A stretch of 64,000 nt of DNA from Nitrospirota bacterium (GCA_963796285.1 CAWCKW010000013.1:96001-160000), one strand, 5' to 3'. Counted from the stretch's first letter, positions 21,634 through 41,096 are shown. Program-made: numbers and translations. Notes: generated by a model from the sequence alone, not told the origin.

Positions 21634-22231
21634 ATTGTCTACGAGAGGCAGAAGAATGATGATCGGGATGTGCATGAGATGATACACAACGACTGCAACA
21701 ACCACGGCGATGGCCGTCAAAACACGGTCCCTCGTTTTCTTCAGCAGTACCGCTTTGATCTTGAATACACCGGCTGAGAAATACAGTGCCACGCCCAGGA
21801 AAAGCCGTACGTCCAGACCGTCCGTCAGCAGGAATTTTGCTAGACACGGCCGCAAGACTGAGAAGCGTAAAACCCAGGACCTCGGTCAGAACAAAGTGCT
21901 CTCCTTTAAGCTTGTTCATGAAAAGATAGAGTGCCGGGAAGATAAGAAGCGGAAGGAGCCTGGGGATATCACCCCGAAAAACACCCACAAGGATCGCCAC
22001 TGCCACAGCGATCTGCCCGAGAAAGACCGTGAGAGATATCCTGTCCCCTGTCCGGCGCACCCATTTCATGAAAGCCTGCTTGGAATTGATCAGCAGCCCA
22101 AGGGCGACAAAAAGGGGTATTGCTGCCCAGGAACAGTCGTGGCTCACGCCCAAGCCGATCAGATACGCAATGATGAGAACGCTCCAGGAGCCGTACTCTT
22201 TCAGGAAATATCCTCGCGCCTCATTTCTCAT
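21529..22231 (-). CDS. YwiC-like membrane protein, frameshift near 21850
   Basis: KEYGSW N-terminal motif, multiple TM helices, C-terminal GWIEV; split across two frames. Confidence 0.75.
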
Positions 22232-22382
22232 GGATGAAATATATCATGGTTTACAGAAGGAAGGTATGAGGGAAATCATATGATGCGAGCAGCAAGGATC
22301 AAAAAAGACAGATCCAGGATGAGATTGTCCAGGTTCTTTTTTCCCCGGATCCCGGCCCCTGAACCTTTGACCCTTTGAAGAT

Positions 22383-23837
22383 TTACATGATCCCGATGAT
22401 GGATGCCCGCGCGTAGTTCAGGAGGTCGGTCGGATACACACCGATCCAGATCACTGCCGTGGCCGAGATCGCAAGCGCAAGCGCGAGAGACGGCGCGGAA
22501 GAGAGTTCGATACTGCCCTTCGGCTCGCTCATGTACATGACCATGATGACCCGGAGGTAGAAGTAGGCGCTGATGGACGAGAACAGCACGCCCGCGACGG
22601 CAAGCCAGACAAGGCCGGCCTGGACCGCGGATTTAAAGATATAGAACTTGCCCACGAACCCGGCCAGGGGCGGAATGCCCGTGAGCGAGAACATGAAGAT
22701 GAGCATGAGGAACGCCGCGGTCTTGTGGGTCTTGCCGAGACCGGCGAAGTCCGTTATCTCCTCACCCCGCTCGCCGGCCTTCCGGAGCATGATCACCACG
22801 CCGAAAGCGCCCATGTTCATGAGCGCGTAGATAAAGACATACAGCATGACGCTCGCTGCGCCTTCCGGCCCCCCAGCGGCCAGGCCGACGAGGGCGTACC
22901 CGGCGTGGGCGATGGACGAATAGGCCAGCATACGCTTGATGTTCGTCTGGGACAGGGCCATGATATTCCCGACCGCCATGGTCAGCACGGCAAGACCGGC
23001 GAGGACCGCGGTGGAATGCTCGTGCAGGGGCCCGAGCGTGTAGAGAAAGATCCGGAGCAGCACGGCGAAGCCGGCGACCTTGGGCCCCGCGGACATGAAC
23101 GCCGTGACCGGCGTCGGCGCCCCTTCGTACACGTCAGGCACCCACATGTGGAAGGGTACCGCGGCCACCTTGAATCCGAAGCTCACGATCAGCATGATCA
23201 TGGACAGGAAAATAACGGGGTTCGTGAGGTCGGCCGACTGCAGGAACAAGAGGATCCCCGCGAGGTTTGTGGTGCCCGAAAGCCCGTACAGGAGCGACAT
23301 GCCGTAAAGCATGATGCCTGACGAGAATGCGCCGAGCACCAGATACTTGATCGCGGCCTCGTTCGACCGGTTGTCCCTCCGCATGAAACCCGCAAGGATA
23401 TAGACAGAGAGCGCCATGAGTTCCAGACCGAGATACAGGGTGATCAGGTCGCCTGCCGACGCCATCATCATCATCCCGCTCGTGGCAAGGAGCATCAGGG
23501 CATAGTATTCGCCGCGATGGATGTCCTCGATCTTCAGATAGTTGATGGACACCAGGATACCTAGGCCGCAGGCACTATAGAAAACAAATTTGATGTACGT
23601 GGAAAAAGGATCGAGCAGGAACGTGCCGTTGAAGAATACCCCGTTCAGGTTCATCAACTTAGTGCTCGCATACGCCGCGATGATAATGCCGCCAAAGCTG
23701 TACCAGCCGAGAATGGCCTTGCGCTCCTTCTCCACAAAAAAATCGAGCACGAGCACCGAAAGCGCCACAACGATCACAACAAGCTCGGGCAGTATCGGGA
23801 GTATGGTTTGCTGAAATTGCTGATACATGCTGGACAT
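22383..23837 (-). CDS. nuoN: NADH-quinone oxidoreductase subunit N
   Basis: EAAIKYLVLG, FKVAAVPFHMWVPDVYEGAPTP, KRMLAYSSIAHAG. Confidence 0.97.
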   Translation of the reverse strand: MSSMYQQFQQTILPILPELVVIVVALSVLVLDFFVEKERKAILGWYSFGGIIIAAYASTKLMNLNGVFFNGTFLLDPFSTYIKFVFYSACGLGILVSINYLKIEDIHRGEYYALMLLATSGMMMMASAGDLITLYLGLELMALSVYILAGFMRRDNRSNEAAIKYLVLGAFSSGIMLYGMSLLYGLSGTTNLAGILLFLQSADLTNPVIFLSMIMLIVSFGFKVAAVPFHMWVPDVYEGAPTPVTAFMSAGPKVAGFAVLLRIFLYTLGPLHEHSTAVLAGLAVLTMAVGNIMALSQTNIKRMLAYSSIAHAGYALVGLAAGGPEGAASVMLYVFIYALMNMGAFGVVIMLRKAGERGEEITDFAGLGKTHKTAAFLMLIFMFSLTGIPPLAGFVGKFYIFKSAVQAGLVWLAVAGVLFSSISAYFYLRVIMVMYMSEPKGSIELSSAPSLALALAISATAVIWIGVYPTDLLNYARASIIGIM

Positions 23838-23854
23838 CGGGTTCTCCTTGACCG

Positions 23855-25394
<1,540 letters not shown>

Positions 25395-25506
25395 GGATCA
25401 GGCTCCTTTAACGAACGAATAAATAGCACCGAACGGATCTATTTTGCAAATATCGTGTACGCCGATGAACGGTGTACGGTGAACCGTGAACGCTGAGCAT
25501 TGAACG

Positions 25507-27432
25507 TTATTTTAAAATATAATACAACCCGAGCAGCACCACGAGACCTAGACCCATCGTGAATGCGTACTGCTGGACGAACCCGGATTGAAGCTTCTTG
25601 CCGCGCTGGCTCGTACTGCCGATGGCGGTTGCCAACCCGTTGATAAGACCATCAATGATCTTGACATCTCCCACCGTATAGAGGAACCTTGCTGTTTTGT
25701 GGACCAGTCCGTCGACGAAGAGATAGTTATAGATCTCGTCAACGTAGTATTTATTGAGAAAAAGACTGTACCCATTTTTAAACTTTTTAGCGATCCTATC
25801 GGGCCAGGCGCTTTCTGTCTTATACATGCCCATCGCCAAACGCCAACCTGCCGCCGCAATGCCGACCGACAAGAGCATTGCGAAAAGCTCGGCTGAATGG
25901 CTGCCGGTTTCTGATGCGTGTTCGGCAGGGGGAAAGAGCGGCGCGAGAAATTCTCCAAAGAGATTTCCACCGTGGATGATAGGCATGCCGATGAATCCGA
26001 TGGTGGTTGAGAAAAAGGCGAGGATCATGAGCGGCACGGTCATCACCCGGGGAGATTCATGCACATGATGCGCGACCTCGTGGTCCACGTGTGACGTGTT
26101 GTAAAAAGTAAGGTAGATCAGCCGGAACGAGTAGAATGCCGTCATAAAAGCACCGACAAGTCCGAGAAACCAGAGCGCTGGTCCGATCGAAGAGGCGTTG
26201 TAAGCGCTCCAGAGGATCTCATCCTTGCTGAAGAAACCGGCAAATGGCGGGATGCCGGACAATGCCAGAGTTCCGATAAAAAATACCGCCCACGTGATTT
26301 TTATTTTTGGCTTGAGCGCACCCATCTTGCGCATGTCCTGCTCGCCGGACAGGGCGTGGATAACGCTACCCGAGGCCAAGAACAGGAGCCCTTTAAAGAA
26401 GGCGTGAGTCGTGAGGTGAAAGATGCCGGCCGAGAACGCACCGACCCCCAGCGCCAGGAACATGTAGCCAAGCTGGCTGATCGTGGAATAGGCGATCACG
26501 CGCTTGATGTCATTCTGCACCAGGCCGATCGTCGCGGCAAAGATCGCGGTAAGAGCGCCGACGATCGCCACCGTGTTCATCGCCGTCGCGGAGAGCGAGA
26601 AGATCGGCGCGCAGCGCGCGATCATGAACACGCCCGCGGTGACCATGGTCGCGGCGTGGATCAGGGCGCTTACCGGCGTCGGGCCTTCCATGGCATCCGG
26701 CAACCAGACGTAGAGCGGCAGCTGCGCGGACTTGCCCGTTGCTCCCAGGAACAGGAGGAGCGCGATGAGGGTTATGACGCTGATCTCGCCGCCGAACAGA
26801 TGGTACGGGGCATTCCCGACGGCCGAGTGCACCGAGGCAAAGACCTCGGAGAAATCCAGGGTGCCGAAGGTAAGAAAAATGAGCAGGACGGCGAGCACAA
26901 ATCCGAAGTCACCGACGCGGTTCACGACAAAGGCCTTGATACCGGCGTCTGAAGCGGATTTTTTTTCGTACCAGAAGCCGATCAGAAGGTAGGAGCAGAG
27001 ACCGACGCCCTCCCAGCCGACGAACATGACCAGAAAGTTATTGGCCATTACCAGCACGAGCATGAAGAAGGTAAAGAGCGCCAGATAGGCGAAGAACCGG
27101 GGATATCCCTTGTCGCCGTGCATGTAGCCCACGGAGTAAATATGGATAAGCGAACTGAGCGTGGTCACGACGAGCAGCATCACCGCGGTGAGCTGGTCGA
27201 TCTGGAACCCCACGTTCACCGAGAAGGTCCCGATGGAGATCCAGGAGTAAAAGTTCTCGTTCAGGTGGACACCCGCGACCACATCGAAAAATGCGCTGAC
27301 GGACAGGATGAACGCGCCGATAACGCCGGCGATGGGGAAATATGCGGACTTCTCCTTCAGGAATTTACCAAACAATCCCGCGATAAGGAATCCGGCGAAC
27401 GGCAGCAGCGGTATCAGTGCGTAGGTGAGCAT
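25507..27432 (-). CDS. nuoL: NADH-quinone oxidoreductase subunit L
   Basis: WEGVGLCSYLLIGFW, GKSAQLPLYVWLPDAMEGPTPVSALIHAATMV. Confidence 0.97.
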   Translation of the reverse strand: MLTYALIPLLPFAGFLIAGLFGKFLKEKSAYFPIAGVIGAFILSVSAFFDVVAGVHLNENFYSWISIGTFSVNVGFQIDQLTAVMLLVVTTLSSLIHIYSVGYMHGDKGYPRFFAYLALFTFFMLVLVMANNFLVMFVGWEGVGLCSYLLIGFWYEKKSASDAGIKAFVVNRVGDFGFVLAVLLIFLTFGTLDFSEVFASVHSAVGNAPYHLFGGEISVITLIALLLFLGATGKSAQLPLYVWLPDAMEGPTPVSALIHAATMVTAGVFMIARCAPIFSLSATAMNTVAIVGALTAIFAATIGLVQNDIKRVIAYSTISQLGYMFLALGVGAFSAGIFHLTTHAFFKGLLFLASGSVIHALSGEQDMRKMGALKPKIKITWAVFFIGTLALSGIPPFAGFFSKDEILWSAYNASSIGPALWFLGLVGAFMTAFYSFRLIYLTFYNTSHVDHEVAHHVHESPRVMTVPLMILAFFSTTIGFIGMPIIHGGNLFGEFLAPLFPPAEHASETGSHSAELFAMLLSVGIAAAGWRLAMGMYKTESAWPDRIAKKFKNGYSLFLNKYYVDEIYNYLFVDGLVHKTARFLYTVGDVKIIDGLINGLATAIGSTSQRGKKLQSGFVQQYAFTMGLGLVVLLGLYYILK

Positions 27433-27559
27433 AGGTACTCCCAATAAGGAATCTGTTGAGTCTGACAAGATTATGGGGTCTAAGGAGCGTCAGGAGCCCG
27501 CAACCCTGACCGCAACTATCGAGACGCTCCGGATCCGTTTGATTCTCGGGACCCGAAGA

Positions 27560-27862
27560 TCATCCCTTCAAGATATTAAACTCATCCGCGTATACGGTCC
27601 CACGGTTCCGCGAGATCAGGATGATGATCGCAAGCGCAACTGCCGCCTCGGCCGCCGCCACGGTAATGACGAAGATCACGAACACCTGCCCCGTGAGCGA
27701 CTGCAGATAGTGCGAGAATGCCACCAGGTTGATGTTCGCCGCGTTCAGCATGAGCTCAATAGACATGAGAATTATGAATATATTTCGCCGGGAGAGCACG
27801 CCCACCACGCCGATGGTGAACAGCAGCGCGCTCAGGATCACGTACCAGGACAGGGGGATCAT
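27560..27862 (-). CDS. nuoK: NADH-quinone oxidoreductase subunit K
   Basis: [29 protein letters not shown]. Confidence 0.96.
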
Positions 27863-27997
27863 AAAACCTCCAGAATCACCGTAGTCAGTAGTCAGTAGCC
27901 AGAAGTCAGAAATCAGAAGAGAGAAGAAAAAACCGGCCATACGGCAGCTACCGATTTACTCCCAGCTCTGTATTCTTGCTCCCGTCTCCTTCTCGTT

Positions 27998-28504
27998 TTA
28001 CTCCTTCACATTCTTCTTCGCCAGCATGACAGCGCCCACCAGACCTACGAGGAGGATGACGGACGCGATCTCGAATGGCACCAGATACTTCTGGTACAAT
28101 GCCATCCCCAGTTCTTTGACACCTGTGCCCGCGAGCAGCATGGGTTGACCGGTGTCTGCGGGGAACGTGCCGCGCGAGATCAACAGTACGATCTCACCTG
28201 CGATCAGTATCCCGAACCCAACCATCCAGGGCCAGAACCGGTTCGCCCGGGCGGCGGAGCTTTCCCGGTCGACATTCAGAAGCATGACCACGAAAAGGTA
28301 GAGGATCAGGATGGCGCCGGCGTATACGATGATCTGCACTGCCGCCAGGAACTCGGCATTGAGCAGAACAAAGACCCCCGCTATATGGAAGAAGAGGAGC
28401 AGCATGAACAAGATACTGTGCACCGGATTCCGGCGCGTGATCGTGAGGATTGCCGATGCCAGGATCACTATGGCAAAGTAAAGGAAAACGAACTTGTTCA
28501 TCAT
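27998..28504 (-). CDS. nuoJ: NADH-quinone oxidoreductase subunit J
   Basis: NPVHS, QIIVYAGAILILYLFVVMLL, PFEIASVILL. Confidence 0.96.
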   Translation of the reverse strand: MMNKFVFLYFAIVILASAILTITRRNPVHSILFMLLLFFHIAGVFVLLNAEFLAAVQIIVYAGAILILYLFVVMLLNVDRESSAARANRFWPWMVGFGILIAGEIVLLISRGTFPADTGQPMLLAGTGVKELGMALYQKYLVPFEIASVILLVGLVGAVMLAKKNVKE

Positions 28505-28971
28505 TGTTTTTTTACCGCCTTTTTGCCCATATAGCGATCTCCACCCTCAACGAGCCGGTTCTTGGAATAGAACGCGTCGTTCCGGGAGTAGCAGGCAAGT
28601 TCGAACTCCGGCGTCATCAGGATCGCGGACACAGGACAGGCATCGATGCAGAAGCCGCAGAACACACACCGGAGCAGGTCGAGTTCATAGGCCATCACCA
28701 GCTTCTGGTGCTCAGGACCTTCGGTCGTCACCACGGTGATGGCCTTGGACGGACAGACCGCCTCGCACAGACCGCACCCGATGCATGCTTCCTTTCCCGT
28801 TTCATCGCGACGCATGGCGTGAAGTCCGCGCGACCCCGGGATCGGCTTCCGCTTGAACGTGGGATACTGCCGGGTGACCGCCGGGGCCAGCATGGTTTTG
28901 AGCGTCAAGGCCATTCCCTGGGCGATCTCGAACAGGAATATCTTTTTGAGCAGTTTTGTTATTTTGTTCAT
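28501..28971 (-). CDS. nuoI: NADH-quinone oxidoreductase subunit I
   Basis: CIGCGLCEAVCP and CVFCGFCIDACP. Confidence 0.96.
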   Translation of the reverse strand: MNKITKLLKKIFLFEIAQGMALTLKTMLAPAVTRQYPTFKRKPIPGSRGLHAMRRDETGKEACIGCGLCEAVCPSKAITVVTTEGPEHQKLVMAYELDLLRCVFCGFCIDACPVSAILMTPEFELACYSRNDAFYSKNRLVEGGDRYMGKKAVKKQ

Positions 28972-29007
28972 CGCCGTCAACTCCTCACTCCGCACTCCGA
29001 ACTGCTT

Positions 29008-30102
29008 CTAAAGCCATCCCATCTGCTTCATTCCGGCCGCCACCAGCAAGGTACCGAGCGACAGAGGAAGCAGCACCTTCCAGGAGATCGTCATAAGCTG
29101 GTCATACCGGTACCGGGGAAGCGTGGCCCGGAGCCATATGTAGAAGAATATGAAAAAGTAGAGTTTGCCGAACAGCCAGAATATCGGGGGGATGGCGGCC
29201 AGCATCCGGTTGATCCAGGCTATATGGGCGAGGTGGCCGAGCGTCTGCGGCAGGATCTGCACCGGCAGCCAGCCTCCCAGGAACATGATACTCACGAGCA
29301 GCGATACGACCATCATGTTCACATACTCCGCCATGTAGAACAACCCGAAGCGGATACCGCTGTACTCGGTGAAGTACCCGGCAACGAGTTCGCTCTCTGC
29401 TTCAGGAAGGTCAAACGGCACACGGTTCGTTTCGGCGATGCCCGCCATCAGGTAAAGGGCAAAGGCCACGGGCCCGACCGGCAACGCGACGATGAACCAC
29501 CTCTTGGACTGGGCATTCACAATGTCGGTCAGGTTCAGAGACCCGGCCATGAGCACCACGGTGATGATGGCAAAGGCCATGGGGATCTCGTAGCTGATCA
29601 TCTGCGCCGCGGAGCGGAAGCCGCCCATGAGGGAATACTTGTTGTTCGAGGCCCAGCCGGCCATGATCACGCCATACGTACCGATGCTGGCAAATGCGAT
29701 GATATAGAGAACGCCGATGTTCAGGTTGGAGATATAGAGCGGGACCTTGTGGGACAGGAGCCCGTAGAAATTCGTCGGCGGACCGAACGGCAGCACTACG
29801 ATGGCCCCGAAGGCCATGACGAACAGGATCAGGGGCGCAATGCTGAACACCCACTTGTCGGCCTTGGCGGGGATGACGTCTTCTTTCAGCAGGAACTTGA
29901 CGGCATCGGCAATGGGCTGCAGGAGTCCGTGCCATCCGGCCCGCATGGGTCCGAGCCTCGACTGCATATGCGCAAGCACCTTACGCTCCATGTAGGGTAA
30001 ATACATGATATTGGCCAGGAGGAATGCCACCAGGACCAGGGCCGGTATAAGGAAGATCACCAGCATCAGGATGCTATTCAGAACGTGATGGATATCGGGC
30101 AT
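29008..30102 (-). CDS. nuoH: NADH-quinone oxidoreductase subunit H
   Basis: ERKVLAHMQSRLGP, GLLQPIADAVK, ETNRVPFDLPEAESELVAG. Confidence 0.97.
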   Translation of the reverse strand: MPDIHHVLNSILMLVIFLIPALVLVAFLLANIMYLPYMERKVLAHMQSRLGPMRAGWHGLLQPIADAVKFLLKEDVIPAKADKWVFSIAPLILFVMAFGAIVVLPFGPPTNFYGLLSHKVPLYISNLNIGVLYIIAFASIGTYGVIMAGWASNNKYSLMGGFRSAAQMISYEIPMAFAIITVVLMAGSLNLTDIVNAQSKRWFIVALPVGPVAFALYLMAGIAETNRVPFDLPEAESELVAGYFTEYSGIRFGLFYMAEYVNMMVVSLLVSIMFLGGWLPVQILPQTLGHLAHIAWINRMLAAIPPIFWLFGKLYFFIFFYIWLRATLPRYRYDQLMTISWKVLLPLSLGTLLVAAGMKQMGWL

Positions 30103-30111
30103 GGTCTGCTC

Positions 30112-32286
30112 CTATACTTCAATCTTCAAATGCCGTATGGTACCGATTTCATGCGAACGCGTAATCGTCCCGCCTGAGGAGAAAAGCAGCCTCTCGGCCG
30201 TCAGCACTTCCTGCGTCATGATCGAGTCCGAATGAAGCGAGAGATCGATGTCCGTATTCATCAGCGGGGACTTCTCGCGCGGCCAGCATGCGCCGATCGC
30301 GAGGTCCGCGTACATCGGCACAACCGCCCTGATCTCGTTCATAATATCCCGGGCCGAGGCATAGTGCATCGGGTCGCCCATCCGCTTTGCTATATCCTGA
30401 ATGATTTCCCAATCCGGCCGTGACTCTCCGATCGGCTCTTCCGCCTTGTTCAGCTGCTGGAGCCTGCGTTCCAGGTTGGTGAACGTACCGGTCTTCTCCG
30501 CGCTCGCCGCCGCCGGGAGCACCACGTCGGCGATCATCGCCGTCTCGGTCATGAAGATGTCCTGCACGACCAGGAACTCGAGCTTGTCGAGCTGCTGCTG
30601 GAGGCGCCGGTCGCTCCCGACCGGATCATCGCCCATGATATAAAGCGCCGCGAGCTTGCCCGGCGCAATGGCCTCTATCATCTCGATGGCGTTCATGCCG
30701 GGCGTTTCAGATAGGACCGCGTTCCAAGCGCTCGCAAACACGGCGGTCTGGTCAATGTCCACCGAGCGATAGCCGGGGTAATAGGCCGGGTGCATCCCCA
30801 TATCGAGCGTCCCCTGGAAGTTGCTTCGCCGTACCAGAGGATAATGCGTGACGTTCTTGAGCTGCCCTGAGAGCTCCTTGATCTGCACGAACTCCTTGTC
30901 GGTCATCCGTGCTGGGACGATGATCGCAACACTCTTGGCCGCCTTCAGAAGCTCAACAGCCTTCAATACCTCGCTCCCGCCCTTTTCGGAGGAGAGAGCG
31001 GATACCAGTCCCTCGATCGCTTTTTCTGAGCTGTCAGGAATGACCACCGAGGCGATCTTGTTGAATTTATTTTGCTCGCTGTTAACGAGTATGACCTTCC
31101 GCTCCTTCCGTGTCACGGCACGGACGATCTCAATGCCGGTAAGCGGATTGATCTCTCCCACATTTTTATCGAGAACGAGGATAACGTCGTGCTCGCTCAT
31201 CTTGTTCAATTCTCCCGAGAAAAACGCCGTATTCAGTCCTTTTGGCACTTTCAGCCTCGCGAGCATGTCCACATTGTTCGTCCCGACCACGGCGCGCATG
31301 AACTTCTGAAAAAGATAGCTATCTTCATTCGTTGTCCGGACCGAACCGAGCGCGCCGATGCTCTGAGGCCCGCGCTTGCTCTTGATCACCTTGAGCGTGG
31401 TCGCGATGACCGACAGCGCCTCGTCCCAGTTGCAATCCACGAGTTCGCCGCCGATCCGCATCTTCGGGGTCGTGATCCTCTCGCTGCTGTGAACAGCATC
31501 CCAGCCGAAACGGCCCTTGGCGCAGAGATAGTTATCCTTGGCCGGACCCACGCGCATGATCTTCCCGTCGCGTGTTTCATACTGGATCCCGCAGCCGCAG
31601 CCGCAGTAGTTGCAGACCGACTTGGTCCCCTCGAGGTTCCAGCTCCGTGCCTTGTATTTGAACTGGCGCGTGGTAAGCGCGCCCACGGGACAGATCTCGG
31701 TGCACTCGCCGCAGAACTCACAGTCGAGCGGACGGTCGAAGTCAGTGCTGATACGCGCCCTCGTTCCCCTGCGGGTAAAGGCCCACTCTCCCACGCCGTT
31801 CTGTTCATCGCAGATCCTGACACATTTTCCACAGAGAATGCAGCGGCTGATGTTGCGTTCCACGATCGGGCTCTCCAGGTCCGGCGGGAGGTACCCTTTT
31901 TCAGCGTCGAACCGGCTCGGTGCGAGACCGTATTCGTGAACAAGGTCCTGAAGCTGGCACTCGCCGGCCTTGTCGCAGACCGGGCAGTCGAGCGGGTGCT
32001 TGATCAGCAGGAGTTCGAGCACCATCCGCCGCGCCTCAATGAGCGCCGGGCTTGTCGTTCTGACGACCATATTATCAGTGGCCGGCGTGGTGCAGGACGG
32101 CGTGAACTTGCGGGGGGTTCCCTCCACCTCAACCAGGCAGATCCTGCAGGCGCCGAAGGGATGCAATTTATTGTCCTGGCACAAGGTCGGCACCCGTGAT
32201 CCCGCCGCGTTAGCAGCGTCAAGGATGGTGGACCCGTGGGGCACCTCGACCTTCTTTCCATCAACCGTAACCGTCATTTTCAACAT
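30112..32286 (-). CDS. nuoG: NuoG-like subunit (Fe-S relay + degenerate molybdopterin-oxidoreductase fold)
   Basis: [2Fe-2S] (PTLC...GACRIC...C), HPLDCPVCDKAGEC, CILCGKCVRIC, CEFCGECTEICP, CNYCGCGC; no Cys/Sec-His Mo ligand. Confidence 0.85.
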   Translation of the reverse strand: MLKMTVTVDGKKVEVPHGSTILDAANAAGSRVPTLCQDNKLHPFGACRICLVEVEGTPRKFTPSCTTPATDNMVVRTTSPALIEARRMVLELLLIKHPLDCPVCDKAGECQLQDLVHEYGLAPSRFDAEKGYLPPDLESPIVERNISRCILCGKCVRICDEQNGVGEWAFTRRGTRARISTDFDRPLDCEFCGECTEICPVGALTTRQFKYKARSWNLEGTKSVCNYCGCGCGIQYETRDGKIMRVGPAKDNYLCAKGRFGWDAVHSSERITTPKMRIGGELVDCNWDEALSVIATTLKVIKSKRGPQSIGALGSVRTTNEDSYLFQKFMRAVVGTNNVDMLARLKVPKGLNTAFFSGELNKMSEHDVILVLDKNVGEINPLTGIEIVRAVTRKERKVILVNSEQNKFNKIASVVIPDSSEKAIEGLVSALSSEKGGSEVLKAVELLKAAKSVAIIVPARMTDKEFVQIKELSGQLKNVTHYPLVRRSNFQGTLDMGMHPAYYPGYRSVDIDQTAVFASAWNAVLSETPGMNAIEMIEAIAPGKLAALYIMGDDPVGSDRRLQQQLDKLEFLVVQDIFMTETAMIADVVLPAAASAEKTGTFTNLERRLQQLNKAEEPIGESRPDWEIIQDIAKRMGDPMHYASARDIMNEIRAVVPMYADLAIGACWPREKSPLMNTDIDLSLHSDSIMTQEVLTAERLLFSSGGTITRSHEIGTIRHLKIEV

Positions 32287-32393
32287 AGTTTTTACCTTAA
32301 ACCTTTTTACCACAGAGATCACAGAGATTTGAACCTGACGTGTCAAATCTTTCCTGTTTCTTCTCTGCGTCCTCTGTGGTGAAGATTTTATTC

Positions 32394-34187: not shown

Positions 34188-34306
34188 GGTTATTTACTCC
34201 GTAAATATATTGGAAATTGAAGATTGGAAATTTTAAATTTTAAAGAAGAACATACTGTTTTTTAATCTACAATATTCAATCTACAATTTCCAATTTTCAA
34301 TTCTTC

Positions 34307-34684
34307 TTAATACGTCGTCTCATGCCCGACAACCAGCGCGTACTCCGGCACCGGCTTGCCCCCTGCGATGTGTTCGGCAAAGATTTTTCGCATTTTCTCG
34401 TCCGTCAGCGAAATGTATTTCACCGGCGGCTCACCCGTGGTCTCGATGGTGGCCATGGGCTCCTTGCTGCAAAGGCCCGCGCAGCCTGATGTGGTGATCG
34501 CGACGTCCTTCAGGTTCGATTTGGCAAGCTCTTCCATGATCGTGTTCATGATTCCCCTGGCGCCCGCGGCGATCCCGCAGGTCCCCATGTGCACCGTGAC
34601 CCTGACGCGGAACCCACCCTCGCGAAGTCCCTGGTGGTAATCTTCCTTGATCTTCTTTAAATCAGCGATCGTGAGTTTGGCCAT
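34307..34684 (-). CDS. Thioredoxin-like [2Fe-2S] ferredoxin (HydD/HndB-like)
   Basis: VHMGTCGIAAGA and SGCAGLCSKEP. Confidence 0.9.
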   Translation of the reverse strand: MAKLTIADLKKIKEDYHQGLREGGFRVRVTVHMGTCGIAAGARGIMNTIMEELAKSNLKDVAITTSGCAGLCSKEPMATIETTGEPPVKYISLTDEKMRKIFAEHIAGGKPVPEYALVVGHETTY

Positions 34685-34769
34685 AGTTCATCACTCCGTG
34701 AATTGTAAGATACGACATGACACCGGCTGGTGCGTGTGTATTTTGCGCTTTGTAATTTGCGTTGTGGTC

Positions 34770-35279
34770 CTACTCATACTTCTTGACAATGTCCATCACC
34801 TTCGTGGCGGCAACATCTCCGTAGGTGTCCTGGCCGATAACGACGACCGGCGCGAGACCGCACGCGCCAAGGCACCTCACGGCCTCGAGGGAATACCTCT
34901 TGTCCCGCGTTACTTCGCCGACCTCCAGATCGAGTTCGTCCTTGATCTTATTGAGGATCTCCTCGCTCCGTTTCACATAGCAGGCCGTGCCGAGACAGAC
35001 CCGGATCACGTGCTTGCCGCGCGGCACGAGCGTGAAGAACGAGTAAAAGGTCGCGACGCCGTAGACCACGCTCGGCGACATATTGAGACCCCGGGCAACG
35101 TATCGCTGCACCGCAGGGGGGAGATAACCGCATACTTCCTGTGCCTGCTGGAGCACGGGGATGAGAGAACCGGGTTTGTCCTTATACTTAGCGACGATCG
35201 CGTCGATCCTCAGGAACATGGCCGGCGTTATGACCTCATTGTTTGTCGCAGTCTGCTGTGCAACCGCTTCGCTACTCAT
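34770..35279 (-). CDS. nuoE: NuoE / HydC-like [2Fe-2S] subunit
   Basis: LIPVLQQAQEVCGYLP, GVATFYSFF, CLGTAC, CLGACGLAP. Confidence 0.93.
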   Translation of the reverse strand: MSSEAVAQQTATNNEVITPAMFLRIDAIVAKYKDKPGSLIPVLQQAQEVCGYLPPAVQRYVARGLNMSPSVVYGVATFYSFFTLVPRGKHVIRVCLGTACYVKRSEEILNKIKDELDLEVGEVTRDKRYSLEAVRCLGACGLAPVVVIGQDTYGDVAATKVMDIVKKYE

Positions 35280-35305
35280 CGTTTACCTCTTGGCAATGTG
35301 AAATG

Positions 35306-35842
35306 TCACTCTTCAAACCGGGTCTGCTCCCTGAACATGCCCCTGATCGCATCAAGCACCGCCGGAGCATTGATCGGCACCTCTTCAAGGTCGTTTTTGA
35401 TCTCCCGTGTGTCGAGCCGGAAGACCCTGTCGCCCTCCCGTGCCTCATACACAACATCAAGATCGGGGTGTCCAGCGATCAGAGTGAGCACCGTATCTGC
35501 CATGCTGCCGATCGCCGGCCGGTCCACATGGCTCCATCGAAAAATTACTGCGACCTTTGTTCCCTTGCCCGGAGCGGAATCCACGGTTACCTTCCCGCCT
35601 GCCTGCTCCGCCGCCTGGGACAGGAGCGGTATCCCCAGTCCCGTCTTTTTGTGTTTGGTGGTGAAAAAAGGGTCCCGGACCTTTGCAAGCGTCTCGGCAT
35701 CCATCCCCCTGCCGTCGTCAATCACTTCAACGCGGATACGGTCGTGCTCCACGTCCCTTGTGATAATGATCGATATCGTCTTCGCATCAGCGCGGACCGC
35801 GTTCTCGGCTATATCAAGGATATGCAGCGAGATATCTTCCAC
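35306..35842 (-). CDS. Stand-alone HATPase (GHKL) ATP-binding protein of hydrogenase-operon type
   Basis: VEDISLHILDIAENAVRA, DDGRGM, DPFFTTK, GLGIP, HVDRPAIG; no His-acceptor domain; GTG start. Confidence 0.88.
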   Translation of the reverse strand: MEDISLHILDIAENAVRADAKTISIIITRDVEHDRIRVEVIDDGRGMDAETLAKVRDPFFTTKHKKTGLGIPLLSQAAEQAGGKVTVDSAPGKGTKVAVIFRWSHVDRPAIGSMADTVLTLIAGHPDLDVVYEAREGDRVFRLDTREIKNDLEEVPINAPAVLDAIRGMFREQTRFEE

Positions 35843-35846
35843 GGCC

Positions 35847-36593
35847 TCAGCAGACCGCCTTCCTGCCGTCTCTGCCTGCCAGCGCTTTTTTGATCTCCGC
35901 CACGTTCCCGTCTTCGATCGTAAAGCACATGGTCCGTTTTCCGATGTCGCCGAGACCGTGAGCATCGGAACTGGTGATGATCGGATACTTCCCGCAGTCA
36001 GGGAACCGGATTGCCGCCTCGACCGCGGTCATATGCGCTGAGACCTCAAGGGCATCAAGAGCAAGCTGAGGCGGGACAAAGCCAAGCTGTCCAATGATGC
36101 TGAACGACTCTCGGTCCACATGCGCCGCGATCACCAGGCTTGCACCTTGTGCCGCGCGCGCCGCTTCAACGATTGCCGCGGCCGGCAGCGAGGTTGCCCC
36201 GATCAATAGCCGGTCGCAGAATCCGGTCACCCCGTCTTCGTCATCAGCGATCACCTGCTGGCCGAAGGCATGCTCATCATTCGTGCCCTGCTGGTGGCGG
36301 TAAATAAACCCCTGGAATTTCAGGAGATCGTCATCGTCATCAAAGAACACCAGGATGTGCGCTTCCTCGGAAGAGGTGACTTCCATCCCGCCCAGCACCA
36401 TCAGCCCGTTCCGCAAGCCCGCCTTTTTCACCGCAAGGACGTTTTCCGCCGAGTTGTGGTCACAAATACCGATCAGATCAAGGCCCTTCCCGAGGGCCGC
36501 ACTCACAACTTCACGGGGCGACATGTCCAGACCGGAGCACGGAGACAGGCAGGTATGCACATGCAGATCCGCCTTAATCCGCCTCAGCGCCAT
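35847..36593 (-). CDS. PHP-domain metal-dependent phosphoesterase
   Basis: DLHVHTCLSPC, ICDHN, GMEV...H, AAHVDR, SSDAH. Confidence 0.9.
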   Translation of the reverse strand: MALRRIKADLHVHTCLSPCSGLDMSPREVVSAALGKGLDLIGICDHNSAENVLAVKKAGLRNGLMVLGGMEVTSSEEAHILVFFDDDDDLLKFQGFIYRHQQGTNDEHAFGQQVIADDEDGVTGFCDRLLIGATSLPAAAIVEAARAAQGASLVIAAHVDRESFSIIGQLGFVPPQLALDALEVSAHMTAVEAAIRFPDCGKYPIITSSDAHGLGDIGKRTMCFTIEDGNVAEIKKALAGRDGRKAVC

Positions 36594-36924
36594 GGATCCC
36601 TGCCTTGTATAATCTACCAACCAGCTCAAATGCCGACAGACTGCTCACCAGGACTGGGATGCCCTCTTCCTCAGCCTTGGCAATGGTGTCCTTTTCGGGC
36701 TGCCGTCCCTGGACCAGGATAATGCCCGCCAAGTCCTTGTGCGACGCCACTGCCACGATATTCTGATGAATGTGGAGCGTTACCCAGAGAGTCCCCTCGT
36801 CTGCATGGGCCAGGACATCCGACAGGAGGTCGCTCACGTAACCGCTGCTCACCTCACGGTCAAGGTTTTTGGCGCCGGTTTTTACTTCCAGATCGAATTC
36901 CTTTACAAGGTCACTCAAGGTCAT
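36574..36924 (-). CDS. DRTGG-domain protein (HPr-kinase N-terminal-like)
   Basis: GYVSDLLSDVL, LWVT, NIVAVA, KAEEEGIPVL. Confidence 0.85.
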   Translation of the reverse strand: MTLSDLVKEFDLEVKTGAKNLDREVSSGYVSDLLSDVLAHADEGTLWVTLHIHQNIVAVASHKDLAGIILVQGRQPEKDTIAKAEEEGIPVLVSSLSAFELVGRLYKAGIHGAEAD

Positions 36925-36937
36925 AATGGGTTCCCGA

Positions 36938-37891
36938 TCAGCTCGTATAATAGAACTGCATGGTCAGATGCGTTCCGTCGGGCACCGACGATCTCAGGTC
37001 CATCTCATCGGCGCATTTCTTTATGTTCACCAGCCCCATGCCTGCACCGAACCCCAGTTCCCGCACCCAGTCGGGGGCAGTGGAGTATCCCGGCTGCATG
37101 GCACGCTCGACGTCCGGGATTCCAGGACCATTGTCTGTCACTTCCACAATGATTCCCCACTTTTCCACCTGGGCCCGTATCACACCGCCCTTGGTGTACG
37201 AGGCAAGGTTGATCTCGGCCTCATAGGTGGCCACCCCGATTCGCCTGAGGAGCGGGGGACAGACACCCAGTTTTTTGAGTGCGTTCTTGAGCTCGCTCGC
37301 TGCCTTGCCTGCCTCCTTCAAAGTTTGGCCCGCAACGTTGAACTTGAAAATGAAGCTGACCTCGTCAGCGGTTACGTCCTCAAAGAACTTCCGCATCGTG
37401 GGCCGATGACGCGCCAAGGCAGCCTTCGACTCGGTCTGTTCGTATTCGATCTCAAGCTTCCTGAGCAGTCCTTCGACGATGCTCCCCTTTGTAATGATGC
37501 CGACCAGCTCTTCCTGACGATTCAATACGGGGTATCGCTTAAACCCGTATTTGGAAAACTTCGCGATACAGTGAACGAGCAGTTCGTCGGCGTACAGGCA
37601 CTCAACCTTCGTCTTCATCTTGTCCCGGATGAGGGCGTTGATGTCATTATTACTGAGGGCATTGATCAGGTCCGCTATGCTGACCATGCCAACAAGCTTC
37701 CCGTTCTCGACGACCGGCGTTCCGGAGATGCGGTTGGCCTTCAGGAGGATACTGAGCTCAGACATGGTCTGGTCCGGCCTTACGGTAACGACCGTGGCGG
37801 ACATGACCTCGCCGACCGTGATCTCATAGACCATCTCCTGGGTCTTGGTCACCCGGTCCGTCGCTGCCTGCTCTTTTTCTTGTTGTTCCAT
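36938..37891 (-). CDS. CBS-pair + RsbT/SpoIIAB-like Ser/Thr kinase fusion
   Basis: ISGTPVV...LVGMVS and RYPVL...LVGIIT CBS motifs; YEAEIN, DNGPGIPDVERAMQPGYSTA, GFGAGMGLVN. Confidence 0.9.
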   Translation of the reverse strand: MEQQEKEQAATDRVTKTQEMVYEITVGEVMSATVVTVRPDQTMSELSILLKANRISGTPVVENGKLVGMVSIADLINALSNNDINALIRDKMKTKVECLYADELLVHCIAKFSKYGFKRYPVLNRQEELVGIITKGSIVEGLLRKLEIEYEQTESKAALARHRPTMRKFFEDVTADEVSFIFKFNVAGQTLKEAGKAASELKNALKKLGVCPPLLRRIGVATYEAEINLASYTKGGVIRAQVEKWGIIVEVTDNGPGIPDVERAMQPGYSTAPDWVRELGFGAGMGLVNIKKCADEMDLRSSVPDGTHLTMQFYYTS

Positions 37892-37895
37892 CCGT

Positions 37896-38252
37896 CTAAT
37901 GCCGCTCGGCCACTCCTCTAAGTCCTTTCAAGTACAGTATGCCGCAGGCCTCGAACATCGTGAGCTTCGTCACGAACAGGGGGATGTCCTTCTGTTTTGC
38001 CAGCGCCACAGTGTCAGCATCCGGCTGCTTGCCGCGCACGACGCAGACCGCCTGGATATCAGCGATGTCGGCCGTCCGTACCGCCTGGGGGTTGGTGAGT
38101 CCCGTGATCAGAATGCCGTTTGCGTGAGTGCGGCCGAGCACGTCGCTCATGAGGTCGGCGCTGAAGCAGTGCTCCACCTCGATCTCATCGATAAGGCCGT
38201 TCCCGGCAAGGACCTGCGCGCCCAAGAGATTCACAATCTCTCTCAAATTCAT
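37896..38252 (-). CDS. DRTGG-domain protein
   Basis: FSADLMSDVL, LITGLTNPQAVRTA, VRGKQP, MFEACGILY. Confidence 0.87.
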   Translation of the reverse strand: MNLREIVNLLGAQVLAGNGLIDEIEVEHCFSADLMSDVLGRTHANGILITGLTNPQAVRTADIADIQAVCVVRGKQPDADTVALAKQKDIPLFVTKLTMFEACGILYLKGLRGVAERH

Positions 38253-38268
38253 CCGGCAACCCTCTCCT

Positions 38269-39463
38269 CTATCGGTCACACTCGCCGAGCACGATATCGA
38301 TCGTGCCGATGCAGGCGATAACATCCGCCATCATATGTCCGGTCACCATCTTCGGAAGGGCGCTCACATGCACATACGATGGCGCGCGGATCTTGATGCG
38401 GTACGGCCTGCCGCTGCCGTCGCTCACGATATAAAACCCGAGCTCGCCCTTCGGCGCTTCGGTGGCCACGTAGACTTCGCCCTTGGGCATGGGGACCCAC
38501 TTGCTCATGTACACGAACTGGTGCGCAAGGGACTGCATGTTCTGCATAACCTGTCGTCTTCTCCGGCATGGCGTAGCGCGGGTCATCGGTCGTGATGGGC
38601 CCCGGCTGCATCATGTCCAGACATTGTTTGATGATACGGTTGCTTTGGCGCATCTCGTTGATGCGCACGATGTACCGGTCGTACACGTCCCCGTTCTTCC
38701 CGAGCGGGACATCGAACTCCACCTTGTCATACGCAGCATAGGGCTCTACCTTGCGCAGGTCGTAGTTCACTCCCGAGCCGCGGAGCGTGCCGCCGGTCAG
38801 ACCGTAGTTGACCGCGTCCTCGGCCGAGAACACGCCGATACCCACTGTCCGCTTGAGCCAGATCCGGTTCTCCCGGATAAGCGTATCGTAATCCTCGAGC
38901 CGCTTGGGGAACACTTCGGTGAACTCGCGGCACTTATCGATAAAATCGCGCGGCACGTCGTTCCGCAGACCGCCGATGCGGACATAACTTACGGTCTGTC
39001 GCGCTCCCGTCACCATCTCCGTCAGATCGAGGATGAGTTCCCGTTCCCGCAGCGTGTACATGCAGACCGTCATGGCGCCGATATCAAGGGCGTGGGTACC
39101 GAGCCACACTAGGTGCCCGGAAAGCCTCGTGAGCTCGGCCATCAGCGTCCTGATGAACTGCGCCCGCTCCGGCACGGTGATGCCGGCGAGCTTCTCCACG
39201 GCCACGACGTAGCCCAGGTTGTTGTTCATGCAGGTGATATATTCCAGCCGGTCCGTCATGGGGATGATCTGGTGGTAGGTGCGGCTCTCCATCCACTTTT
39301 CGATCCCGCGGTGAAGATACCCGGGACGCGGGTCACAGCCCACCACGGTCTCGCCCTGCAGATCGAGCACCAGGCGCAGCACGCCGTGGGTGGCCGGATG
39401 CTGGGGACCCATGTTGAGGGTAATTTCTTTTTGCACTATCTCTTTAGTCTCGGTAACGGACAT
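38269..39463 (-). CDS. nuoD: NADH-quinone oxidoreductase subunit D (frameshift near 38555)
   Basis: [42 protein letters not shown]; no NiFe CxxC ligands. Confidence 0.96.
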
Positions 39464-39575
39464 ATGTTCACCATGTAATGTCAAATGTCAAAACCCAAAG
39501 TTCAATTCAAACTTCAAACAGCAAGGCCACATGTTAAAATATTTTGACCTTTGAATTTTAAACTTTGAATTTTCT

Positions 39576-40046
39576 TCAGTAGCCTTTCAGCGGATATTCC
39601 TTCCGGAGAGGATACCCTTCCCAGTCCTCGGGCAGGAGGATCCTGCGGAGGTCCGGATGACCGTCGAATTTTATTCCCATAAGGTCATAGGTCTCTCGCT
39701 CATGCCAGTTCGCTGTATGCCAGATCGCGGAGACCGTGTCTATTCGCGGGTCCTCTTCCGGTACTCTGACCTTCAAGCGAATACGATGGTGGAATGTGAT
39801 CGAGATCATATTGTACACGACCTCGAACCGCGGTCCGCTGTCGCCGGGGTAAGTTGAAAAATCGACTGCCGTAAGATCGGCCAGATGGTCCATCCTGACC
39901 AACGGTTCGTCGCGGAGGTAGAGGCAGATGTCCCGGATCATGTCCTTTTTGAGGGACACTCCCACCTGCCCCGCATGGGTCGTCGTGCCGAGTACCTGGC
40001 CGGGAAAGTTTTCTTCTATCATTTTGGCGATCTGCAAGGGGTCCAT
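39576..40046 (-). CDS. nuoC: NADH-quinone oxidoreductase subunit C
   Basis: RFEVVY, ANWHERETYDLMGIKFDGHPDLRRIL, PLRKEYP. Confidence 0.97.
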   Translation of the reverse strand: MDPLQIAKMIEENFPGQVLGTTTHAGQVGVSLKKDMIRDICLYLRDEPLVRMDHLADLTAVDFSTYPGDSGPRFEVVYNMISITFHHRIRLKVRVPEEDPRIDTVSAIWHTANWHERETYDLMGIKFDGHPDLRRILLPEDWEGYPLRKEYPLKGY

Positions 40047-40167
40047 ACAACCTCGTATCGTACTGATCTCTACCCAAGGCTCCGGGGCAAAGCGGCCTGG
40101 TATTCGGAGTCTCTGTGGCCTGCTGCAGGAGATTGGGTATCGTCTGTGTTGATCTTGTGTGCAGGAT

Positions 40168-40647
40168 CTACTTCCGGATGTAATGCTCAGCTCTGATCTT
40201 TTCCTGAAGCTTCATGATGCCGAACATGAGGGCCTCCGGCCGCGGCGGACAGCCGGGGATATACACGTCTACCGGGACAATATTATCTACCCCCTGGACC
40301 ACGCTGTAGGTGTTGAAGATCCCGCCGGAACCGGCGCAACTGCCCATGGCAATGACATACCGCGGCTCTGGCATCTGGTCGTACACACGGCGCACGATCG
40401 GGGCCATCTTTTTAGTCAAGGTTCCGGCGACGAGCAGAAGGTCTGACTGCCTTGGTGACGGTCGAGGCACCGTGCCGAACCGGTCGAAATCATGCTGCGG
40501 AGCGGAGTAGTACTGGATCATCTCGATGGCGCAGCATGCGAGACCGAACGTCATGGGCCAGATGGAGTAGGAACGCGCAAGGTTTAAAAGCTCATCGAGC
40601 TTCGTGGTGATGTACCCCTCTTCGAAGGCGTTCTGGATTATTCCCAT
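40168..40647 (-). CDS. nuoB: NADH-quinone oxidoreductase subunit B
   Basis: [27 protein letters not shown]. Confidence 0.97.
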
Positions 40648-41012
40648 TCAAGGGCCCCCTTCTTCCACGCATAAAGATACCCAACGAGCAGGATGGCGAT
40701 GAAGACCACCATTTCCACGAAACCGTACAGGCCAATGTAGTCATAGGCTACGGCCCAGGGATAGAGAAACACGGATTCGATGTCGAATATGAGGAACAGC
40801 ATGGCGATGATGTAGTAACGGATAGAGAACTTCTGATGGGCGTCCATGAAGGGCGTGATGCCGGACTCGTAGGTCAGCAGCTTTTCGGGATAGGGGTTCC
40901 GCGGCCGGAGGACCCAGCTGAAGACAAGCATCCCGATGCCGACGGCGGAGCCGAGCAGCAAAAAAACGATCACGGGCAGAAAGTGGTCCGGAAGATAGGT
41001 ACTTGGTGTCAT
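40638..41012 (-). CDS. nuoA: NADH-quinone oxidoreductase subunit A
   Basis: [27 protein letters not shown]. Confidence 0.97.
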
Positions 41013-41067: not shown

Positions 41068-41096
41068 ATGATAAGCCATGCAAAAAAATTTGTCAA
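41068..41096 (-). promoter_or_regulatory. Sigma70 promoter of the nuo operon
   Basis: TTGACA-N17-TATCAT, -10 element 55 bp upstream of the nuoA ATG. Confidence 0.75.

Follow-up and report, generated by a model that had tools for sequence, protein, structure and literature searches.

A conserved five-gene cassette within a predicted Nuo-Bfu complex I operon of Nitrospirota, a candidate regulator of bifurcating-type input modules

Five small genes between nuoD and nuoE

We analyzed a 64,000-nucleotide (nt) stretch of a Nitrospirota genome (GCA_963796285.1 CAWCKW010000013.1:96001-160000; hereafter, the window), in which five small genes are embedded between nuoD and nuoE of a complex I operon. 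The comparisons described below are best explained if this cassette belongs to the HydBC-type, or bifurcating (Bfu), NADH/ferredoxin module of the encoded enzyme, rather than to complex I as such, and sits where that module would join nuoABCD. A preliminary description, made from the sequence alone, had reported five tightly packed genes on one strand at 35306-38252, and the open reading frames (ORFs), Pfam matches and gene spacing bear this out at exactly these coordinates. The genes are as follows, in the order of transcription:

37896..38252, minus strand: DRTGG-1, 118 amino acids (aa); PF07085, E 2.2e-6, 27.9 bits (cut-off 25.2)
36938..37891, minus strand: CBS pair plus HATPase_c_2 (SpoIIAB/RsbW-type GHKL) kinase, 317 aa; CBS E 3e-24 in two stretches, HATPase_c_2 E 2.2e-9
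36574..36924, minus strand: DRTGG-2, 116 aa; PF07085, E 2.3e-6, 27.8 bits (cut-off 25.2)
35847..36593, minus strand: PHP-family predicted metal-dependent phosphoesterase, 248 aa; PF02811, E 7.8e-8
35306..35842, minus strand: stand-alone HATPase_c protein of the HydE/'hisK' type; E 4.5e-19

Both DRTGG proteins score barely above the gathering threshold of PF07085. Aligned with each other, they are 33% identical (E 2e-20), and the D-L-[LM]-S-D-V-L motif that the preliminary description had pointed out stands in register in the two; the motif is thus real and homologous, and the proteins are paralogues. D33, S36 and L39 of DRTGG-1 are invariant in 40 orthologues from many phyla. The D-L-x-S core of DRTGG-2 is at least 90% conserved among 67 orthologues, and His53 is conserved as well. 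In the kinase, the N-box (E224, E226 and N228), the G1 box (D253, G255 and G257) and the G2 box (G280-L287) are invariant in 35 diverse homologues. The kinase part matches SpoIIAB structures (E about 6e-5), as well as the spIIAB model at an E of 6.6e-13, which is below the cut-off of that model, and the best solved relatives of the CBS pair include AcuB-type proteins. The whole protein is strongly conserved: its best 120 clusters are all at least 79% identical, and those with names come mostly from Nitrospirota metagenome-assembled genomes (MAGs).

In the PHP protein, H12, H14, D46, H47, E72, H159, D211 and H213 are invariant in 42 sequences, and their positions suggest that these eight residues are the metal ligands. 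The stand-alone HATPase, whose GTG start at 35842 was inferred from the junctions in orthologues and fusion proteins, keeps D9, N13, D41, G43, G67, G69 and D106 invariant in 33 sequences. The predicted ATP-binding or catalytic motifs of the kinase, the PHP protein and the HATPase are intact. Compared with two Nitrospirota relatives, the ratios of non-synonymous to synonymous substitution rates (dN/dS) of the five genes are 0.08-0.17, similar to those of NuoE (0.08-0.10) and NuoC. The cassette genes are under purifying selection.

The C-terminal portion of the HATPase, about 75 aa, matches no family. After the ATP-binding domain, at residues about 103-111, lies a near-invariant S-H-x-D-R-x-P-x-G stretch, which resembles a histidine-kinase H-box; this assignment was dropped, as a Pfam search at E up to 5 detected a HisKA-type domain in none of the 33 HATPase orthologues. 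The HATPase likewise does not qualify as a two-component histidine kinase, given the lack of a HisKA/DHp domain and of a receiver partner, Pfam detecting no receiver domain in the operon. An anti-phage defence system was ruled out, since the PADLOC models match none of the five proteins except for a weak match to the PHP domain (E 3e-4). We found no close solved structures for DRTGG-1, DRTGG-2 or the PHP protein; the matches of DRTGG-2 to 'Pizza' structures were disregarded, as these are designed repeat proteins and no matched stretch was given.

Organization of the operon

The cassette is part of a 20-gene cluster on the minus strand, which runs from 41012 down to 22383 and comprises nuoABCD, the five small genes, nuoE, a 125-aa thioredoxin-like gene, nuoF, nuoG and nuoH-N. 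By Pfam, all 14 nuo genes lie in this single cluster (22383-41012), two of them frameshifted, with the Bfu genes in its middle:

41068..41096, minus strand: best sigma-70-like promoter match, upstream of nuoA (TTGACA-17-TATCAT, 11/12; a consensus match only)
40638..41012, minus strand: nuoA; Oxidored_q4, E 7.2e-39
40168..40647, minus strand: nuoB; Oxidored_q6, E 3.6e-29
39576..40046, minus strand: nuoC; Complex1_30kDa, E 2.8e-47
38269..39484, minus strand: nuoD, in two frames through a one-base insertion near 38553; Complex1_49kDa 1-180 in ORF 38276-39484 and 174-271 in ORF 38269-38586
34770..35279, minus strand: nuoE, BfuC/HydC type; 2Fe-2S_thioredx, E 1.8e-51
34307..34684, minus strand: HydD/HndB-like thioredoxin-like protein, 125 aa; 2Fe-2S_thioredx matches weakly, with a sub-threshold 22.3 bits
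32394..34187, minus strand: nuoF, BfuB/HydB type, 597 aa; N-terminal 2Fe-2S domain, flavin mononucleotide (FMN)/NADH core and two C-terminal 4Fe-4S domains
30112..32286, minus strand: nuoG, predicted BfuA equivalent; iron-sulphur (Fe-S) and molybdopterin-like domains, no H-cluster; TIGR01973, 452.5 bits (cut-off 470)
22383..30102, minus strand: nuoH, I, J, K, L, M and N (Pfam), the membrane arm; nuoM has lost its frame through a one-base deletion near 25212

The cassette is packed more tightly than the rest of the operon. DRTGG-1 starts 16 nt after the nuoD stop, the kinase gene follows DRTGG-1 by 4 nt and DRTGG-2 follows the kinase by 13 nt; DRTGG-2 and the PHP gene overlap by 20 nt, and gaps of 4 nt and 26 nt separate the PHP gene from the HATPase gene and the latter from nuoE. 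None of these gaps exceeds 26 nt, as compared to 85-121 nt for the other gaps of the operon. A consensus scan of the minus (coding) strand found no promoter-like site inside 35300-38300, and terminator-like sites occur at chance level (11 observed, 11.3 expected). As judged from these scans, no internal promoter or terminator appears to separate the cassette from the operon.

The input module is of the bifurcating type

The NuoE and NuoF proteins encoded next to the cassette are not those of a canonical complex I. NuoF matches HydB of A. mobile (841.8 bits; 7t2r_B) and of Acetobacterium woodii (799.8 bits) over its full length, whereas canonical NuoF chains align only to residues 133-530 of its 597, at about 384 bits. 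Complex1_51K, NADH_4Fe-4S, two Fer4 and an N-terminal 2Fe-2S_thioredx domain were detected in it, with SLBB not appearing as a separate Pfam match. In a canonical NuoEFG, NuoF is confined to the FMN/N3 core; the NuoF of the window extends beyond it. Every Cys residue of 7t2r_B and 7q4v_B aligns with a Cys residue of the window NuoF. A G-A-F-M-D stretch is present, in which the Bfu-specific residues A202 and M204 (A. mobile numbering) are conserved, while the equivalent of F182 was placed without certainty; the region of A202 and M204 is named as Bfu-specific in the available text of Schut 2022 (PMC9304861). Similarly, the closest solved relatives of NuoE are the HydC subunits of bifurcating hydrogenases (7t2r_C, 154 bits), as compared to at most 108 bits for canonical complex I. 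The small gene between nuoE and nuoF fits the position of HydD/HndB, and it is kept beside the NuoE/NuoF-like genes in most of the loci surveyed below.

According to the sections available to us, Schut 2022 defines the Bfu family and predicts a 14-subunit Nuo-Bfu complex I, in which BfuABC replaces NuoEFG and which is proposed to oxidise NADH and reduced ferredoxin jointly; BfuB clade 39, from Planctomycetes and Nitrospirae, is among the predicted Nuo-Bfu members. The operon in the window matches that prediction, with NuoE corresponding to BfuC, NuoF to BfuB and NuoG to BfuA on the basis of the domain and alignment evidence. The presence of the cassette in a nuo operon would then be explained by the Bfu type of its input module. 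The preliminary description was thus right in locating the cassette inside a complex I operon, but had overlooked the Bfu type of NuoE and NuoF and the HydD-like gene.

It had also stated that the window contains no hydA gene or H-cluster motif. The searches agree: Pfam scans of 61 ORFs detected no H-cluster domain (Fe_hyd_lg_C) within the 64-kb window, and in tblastn with three HydA proteins the sole match in the window was the N-terminal Fe-S part of nuoG. Our analysis covered this window of the genome, and a hydrogenase may be encoded elsewhere.

The cassette accompanies Bfu modules across phyla

For a survey of related loci, we took genome contigs carrying the best 80 of at least 599 matches to a profile of the kinase. 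Two Nitrospirota loci (L001 and L002) show an order identical to that of the window: nuoABCD, DRTGG-1, kinase, DRTGG-2, PHP, HATPase, nuoE, hydD-like gene, nuoF and nuoG. In an Actinomycetes MAG (L036) and a Thermodesulfobacteriota MAG (L039), the cassette is split, with DRTGG-1 and the kinase upstream of nuoA, and DRTGG-2, PHP and HATPase between nuoD and nuoE. The cassette is retained under selection inside the nuo operons of at least three phyla, and the objection, foreseen in the preliminary description, that the arrangement might be unique to this assembly or a misjoin fails.

Across the survey, NuoE/NuoF-like genes are present in 56 of the 80 loci. The order DRTGG-1, kinase, DRTGG-2, PHP is nearly constant, and the HATPase gene follows either PHP or NuoE. 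Among 36 BfuA-like partner subunits scanned, 15 are of the molybdopterin or formate dehydrogenase (FDH)-like kind (14 with a molybdopterin domain, one of which is the NuoG of L039, plus L033 with an Fe4S4 domain only), 11 are HdrA-like (Pyr_redox_2) fusions, five are HydA, four have Fe-S domains only and one is an amidohydrolase fusion. In two of the molybdopterin/FDH-like partners (L004:3270-5726 and L018:16062-18785), the reading frame contains a TGA where selenocysteine is expected; when TGA at this catalytic position is translated as selenocysteine, these FDH-like BfuA genes yield full-length molybdopterin oxidoreductases. Across the loci examined, it is the Bfu module that the cassette accompanies, irrespective of the third enzyme, and not mainly [FeFe]-hydrogenases. 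The preliminary description had regarded the gene set as a normal companion of [FeFe]-hydrogenase operons; HydABC-type operons are indeed included, but they form a minority (5/36 partners), and the broader association is with NuoE/NuoF-like genes.

The stand-alone HATPase is present in 46 of the 56 Bfu-linked loci, as compared to 0 of the 24 others, and we accordingly read kinase, DRTGG-2 and PHP as a portable core and the HATPase as the Bfu-specific part. Among these 24 loci lacking Bfu genes, 14 are truncated, and the full 10-kb flanks are available for the other 10: L003 and seven spirochaete loci, all described below, and two in which nothing obvious stands out. In a BfuB tree of 47 rows, from which L036 was left out owing to stops, the sequences group by partner enzyme, and the Nuo-linked rows come together as a single clade (SH-aLRT 99), whose sister is the HdrA-like-linked clade. 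A FastTree phylogeny of 79 kinases also clusters by partner, with the Nitrospirota kinases among the HdrA-like-linked ones and those of L036 and L039 apart.

Several loci combine the cassette with other enzymes. In an Atribacterota MAG (L065:1500-13388), Mbh/Nuo-like genes (NuoL/B/C/D/H/I-like) give way immediately to the cassette, which is accompanied by HydD-like and NuoE-like genes, and this locus looks like the membrane-bound 'Mbh-Bfu' type mentioned in the accessible text of Schut 2022. An Anaerolineales MAG (L003:9526-15772) has DRTGG-1, kinase and DRTGG-2 but neither PHP nor Bfu genes; the three lie between hypF/hypE on one side and, on the other, a group-3-type [NiFe]-hydrogenase of four subunits together with its protease. 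In an Anaerolineae MAG (L016:4651-20887), a short nuoA-nuoB-nuoCD(fused)-nuoE cluster is divergent from an operon that comprises HdrC/HdrB-like genes together with the cassette and BfuC-HydD-BfuB-BfuA; in this locus, the gene after nuoE is MazF-like.

Natural fusions follow the gene order

We searched a large protein collection for relatives longer or shorter than the cassette proteins, and all of the fusions described here come from it. Among the adjacent gene pairs of the 80 loci themselves, none is fused (0/24 for PHP-HATPase and 0/65 for DRTGG-1-kinase).

In six of nine short relatives of the kinase, a DRTGG-1-type domain with the motif replaces the CBS pair. In the long relatives, the kinase domain is followed by ferredoxin-type domains (14/14), with PF04060 in 13 and a weak Fe_hyd_lg_C match in 10. 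The same sensory-hydrogenase-like module (Fer4, Fe_hyd_lg_C and PF04060) is present in nine of 12 long relatives of DRTGG-2, in which the DRTGG domain is C-terminal, and one further long relative consists of DRTGG-2 and PHP. The PHP protein has 24 long relatives: 21 are PHP-HATPase fusions, two are PHP-HATPase-NuoE fusions and one is without annotation. One fusion, P0291, aligns with both the HATPase (52% identity) and the NuoE (40% identity) of the window. Measured against the first of the 23 PHP-HATPase fusion proteins, identities range from 46% to 65%, which points to a conserved lineage and not to gene-calling errors.

The fusions thus form a chain that follows the gene order (DRTGG-1-kinase, DRTGG-2-PHP, PHP-HATPase and PHP-HATPase-NuoE) and suggests a protein-level switch docking on NuoE. 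The PHP-HATPase-NuoE proteins, in particular, strengthen the case for a probable coupling at the protein level.

Comparison with known systems

The closest relative of the whole operon is the predicted Nuo-Bfu complex I of Schut 2022, in which a BfuC/BfuB/BfuA-type input module likewise lies in the middle of a single nuoA-N operon. The accessible text of that paper makes no mention of a kinase, PHP, CBS or ATPase, and the tags of its example, GSU0338-0351, leave no room for extra genes; the operon of the window differs in having five putative regulatory genes and a HydD-like gene embedded. HydABC-type operons (with HydE in A. woodii, and 'hisK' and HydD in A. mobile) similarly encode stand-alone histidine-kinase-type ATP-binding proteins and HydD-like proteins among hydC and hydB, according to the descriptions available, and both kinds of protein reportedly stay outside the purified enzyme. 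The preliminary description had likened the HATPase to the gene in the A. woodii hyd cluster, and correctly so: in the part of Poehlein 2012 at hand, HydE is described as similar to the domains with which histidine kinases bind ATP and as lying outside the active enzyme. Unlike these operons, the window has the full five-gene set, and the partner is a membrane-bound complex I.

The layout of the cassette, though only the layout, resembles that of the partner-switching systems SpoIIAB-SpoIIAA-SpoIIE and RsbW-RsbV-RsbU: a Ser-kinase-type HATPase_c_2 protein, an adjacent small partner with an invariant Ser and a metal-dependent phosphoesterase. However, in the cassette DRTGG stands where those systems have STAS, PHP stands where they have PP2C, a sigma factor is missing from the operon, and the apparent target is a subunit of a redox enzyme. 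In the CBS-pyrophosphatases, a CBS-DRTGG-CBS insert acts as a joint unit responsive to adenine nucleotides and diadenosine tetraphosphate (Ap4A), as reported in the literature available. There, the domains lie in one polypeptide and are allosteric on the fused enzyme, whereas in the window they belong to separate proteins alongside a kinase-like protein and a phosphoesterase. Finally, the relatives of the kinase and DRTGG-2 that are fused to Fer4, Fe_hyd_lg_C and PF04060 modules resemble the sensory [FeFe]-hydrogenases, in which HydS/HfsB is accompanied by a Ser/Thr kinase and a phosphatase encoded next to it (Eminoglu 2017, PMC5707799, as far as its text was accessible). The input domain in the window is instead a CBS pair, without an H-cluster domain.

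A candidate regulator of the Bfu module

Taken together, the sequence comparisons define the cassette as a widespread companion of Bfu modules and the operon studied here as a variant, equipped with the cassette, of the predicted Nuo-Bfu complex I. We lean towards reading the five genes as a conserved accessory cassette that regulates the Bfu module post-translationally, and a reversible phosphorylation switch on the input module, as put forward in the preliminary description, is plausible. That the phosphorylation is on Ser of a DRTGG protein specifically is distinctly more tentative.

In such a scheme, the CBS pair of the portable kinase/DRTGG-2/PHP core, with DRTGG-1 attached to the kinase, would read a nucleotide signal and control the SpoIIAB-type kinase; in relatives, an H-cluster-like sensor would take the place of the CBS pair. 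The core would then set the state of the DRTGG proteins, which may be the partners of the kinase. In the simplest route, the SpoIIAB-type kinase would phosphorylate the DRTGG proteins, most simply on the invariant Ser, and the PHP protein would take the phosphate off again. The Bfu-specific HATPase, together with PHP, would couple the DRTGG state to NuoE/BfuC, with the possible outcome that the flavoprotein module is switched on or off, or between an input of NADH only and one of NADH plus ferredoxin. The most elaborate version, in which the five proteins and HydD form a partner-switching-like machine (a CBS or H-cluster-type sensor, DRTGG for STAS, PHP for PP2C and a GHKL adaptor) that docks on NuoE/BfuC and gates con- or bifurcation, is speculative, and we would sooner expect it to be wrong in some part than right as a whole.

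Several observations weigh against a regulator of this kind. Our literature searches turned up nothing about the cassette and no experiment on any of its proteins. To our knowledge, DRTGG, which is not a STAS domain, has no known role as a phospho-acceptor. For DRTGG-1, a role as an input domain would suit the fusions to the kinase no less well, and rather better, than a role as a substrate. With respect to the PHP protein, its weak solved relatives (2yb1 and 3e0f; E 0.017-0.05) were deposited as 'amidohydrolase' and 'putative metal-dependent phosphoesterase' and give no pointer to a protein phosphatase; its fused homologues are named 3',5'-nucleoside bisphosphate phosphatase or TrpH-type phosphoesterase in two sources, and its sub-threshold NCBIfam matches include nucleotide phosphoesterases. 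Seven Spirochaetota loci (L053, L067, L072, L075, L076, L078 and L080) have the kinase among housekeeping genes with no Bfu or redox enzyme near, as the kinase alone in L053 and as the kinase-DRTGG-2-PHP triad in the other six, so that the core need not act on a Bfu module. In the FastTree phylogeny, the kinases from the two groups of Nuo-linked loci do not come out as sisters, and the first half of the cassette may have had a separate history in these groups. Moreover, the 80 loci were found through the kinase and are the best-scoring ones, which biases all counts from this sample toward relatives of the window kinase. The frameshifts in nuoD and nuoM of this assembly also count on this side. 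From the literature, as far as the texts were available, HydE/'hisK' is reported to lie outside the purified holoenzymes (Poehlein 2012; Schut 2022), and the papers listed for DRTGG include none on Bfu, hydrogenase or complex I cassettes. The Nuo operon of Geobacter sulfurreducens, GSU0338-0351, consists of 14 consecutive tags with D, E and F at GSU0341-0343; these being consecutive, no cassette would be present there, and Nuo-Bfu would work without one.

Alternative functions of the cassette

The best-placed alternative, though an unlikely one in our view, is that the cassette is an assembly or maturation machine for Bfu, which loads or checks FMN and Fe-S clusters or chaperones NuoE/NuoF, with no switch on the finished enzyme. 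The co-location of the cassette with BfuBC agrees with such a role, as does the textbook inclusion of chaperones among the GHKL ATPases, and the PHP-HATPase-NuoE fusions fit a factor acting on NuoE equally well. On the other hand, CBS pairs and SpoIIAB-type kinases are usually parts of signalling systems, the kinase and DRTGG-2 are fused to sensory-hydrogenase-like modules in their long relatives, and kinase-DRTGG-2-PHP triads occur without Bfu. In the texts available, HydE/'hisK' is absent from the enzymes as purified, and a role in 'assembly or signalling' is proposed for it by Poehlein 2012; however, Geobacter has a Nuo-Bfu operon without a cassette, and the methods of Schut 2022 name only Tsib1517-1519 as the Nfn-Bfu operon introduced into a foreign host, so that accessory genes were apparently not carried.

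We also give little weight to a nucleotide-messenger module that works without protein phosphorylation, which ranks next. In this scheme, CBS and DRTGG would bind an adenine nucleotide or a dinucleoside polyphosphate, PHP would hydrolyse it, the ATPases would make or consume it, and ligand-dependent binding would regulate the partner. CBS plus DRTGG is the nucleotide- and Ap4A-regulated insert of the CBS-pyrophosphatases, as far as the reports at hand describe it. The AcuB-type proteins among the best solved relatives of the CBS pair point in the same direction, as do the nucleotide-type names of the fused PHP homologues and the nucleotide phosphoesterases among the sub-threshold NCBIfam matches; the sole, weak solved relatives of PHP are metal-dependent hydrolases with no stated substrate. 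However, the kinase domain retains all of the ATP-binding boxes of the SpoIIAB type, and the succession of a kinase, a small protein with a conserved Ser and a phosphoesterase mirrors the partner-switching triads. Furthermore, Pfam detected no nucleotide cyclase or synthase domain in the operon.

It seems improbable that the cassette is a partner-switching module with its real output elsewhere, in transcription through a distant sigma factor or regulator or in a hydrogenase encoded elsewhere in the genome, and that its position among the nuo genes is a historical leftover. HATPase_c_2 kinases are classically anti-sigma factors, in line with the sub-threshold spIIAB match (E 6.6e-13); the hfs genes affect expression in Thermoanaerobacterium, according to the available part of that literature, and the spirochaetes have orphan triads. 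However, Pfam detected no sigma factor, STAS, PP2C or DNA-binding gene in the operon, and STAS and PP2C are absent from the whole window as well; in addition, the fusions link PHP-HATPase to NuoE itself, and the purifying selection acts inside nuo operons of at least three phyla.

Surroundings of the operon and quality of the assembly

The remainder of the window is unremarkable chromosomal DNA without a hydrogenase and holds an rRNA operon, tyrS, ribF, scpAB, an RND pump and a Tad pilus locus. The rRNA operon lies on the minus strand at 1-2254, with a full 16S rRNA (692-2254), tRNA-Ile, tRNA-Ala and the start of the 23S rRNA. Just upstream of the promoter-like site of the nuo operon, at 41304-42452, is a gene for a 382-aa P-loop ATPase, which belongs to no Pfam family above threshold and weakly matches the models of the anti-phage ATPase IetA/IteA (E 1.5e-9 and 2.3e-8, below the cut-offs). 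The G+C content is 0.55-0.59 in the nuo region (22000-40000), as compared to 0.39-0.52 downstream (40000-64000).

The nuoD gene carries one extra base near 38553 relative to L001 and L002, where nuoD is in a single frame. In nuoM, one base is apparently missing near 25212, and the N-terminus is encoded in ORF 24798-25394 and the rest in ORF 23855-25219. In addition, the C-terminal half of a YwiC-like membrane protein (ORF 21500-22231) looks out of frame, with the overlapping ORF 21529-21855 as its apparent continuation, which may be a third indel. The presence of a complete rRNA operon within the contig speaks for an assembly from long reads, and the indels in nuoD and nuoM are most simply taken as assembly errors. 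Decay of the operon, leaving the cassette without function in this genome, is accordingly very improbable: single-base indels do break nuoD and nuoM, and the YwiC-like gene also looks frameshifted, but the other 18 operon genes are intact and highly conserved (NuoF is 94% identical to its relatives), scattered single-base indels and a complete rRNA operon in the contig fit long-read errors, and L002, a similar assembly, has split matches in several nuo genes.

Implications for electron bifurcation and complex I

Hydrogenases, formate dehydrogenases and Hdr-like enzymes are driven by Bfu-type modules, and a published prediction adds to them a complex I that could use ferredoxin plus NADH. Small genes of the HydE/'hisK' kind have been noted in the operons of these modules since at least 2012, and we find that the same five-gene set tracks the Bfu module over many phyla and partner enzymes. 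The cassette is thus a concrete candidate for a system by which anaerobes control electron bifurcation and the input of complex I post-translationally, and such control, if real, would also be relevant to the engineered production of H2 and formate. Should the docking machine outlined above be correct, it would depend on the cassette whether a proton-pumping complex I is fed by NADH only, is fed by NADH together with ferredoxin or stands idle; this would be the first post-translationally switched complex I of prokaryotes, and its cassette may represent a general switch for all Bfu enzymes.

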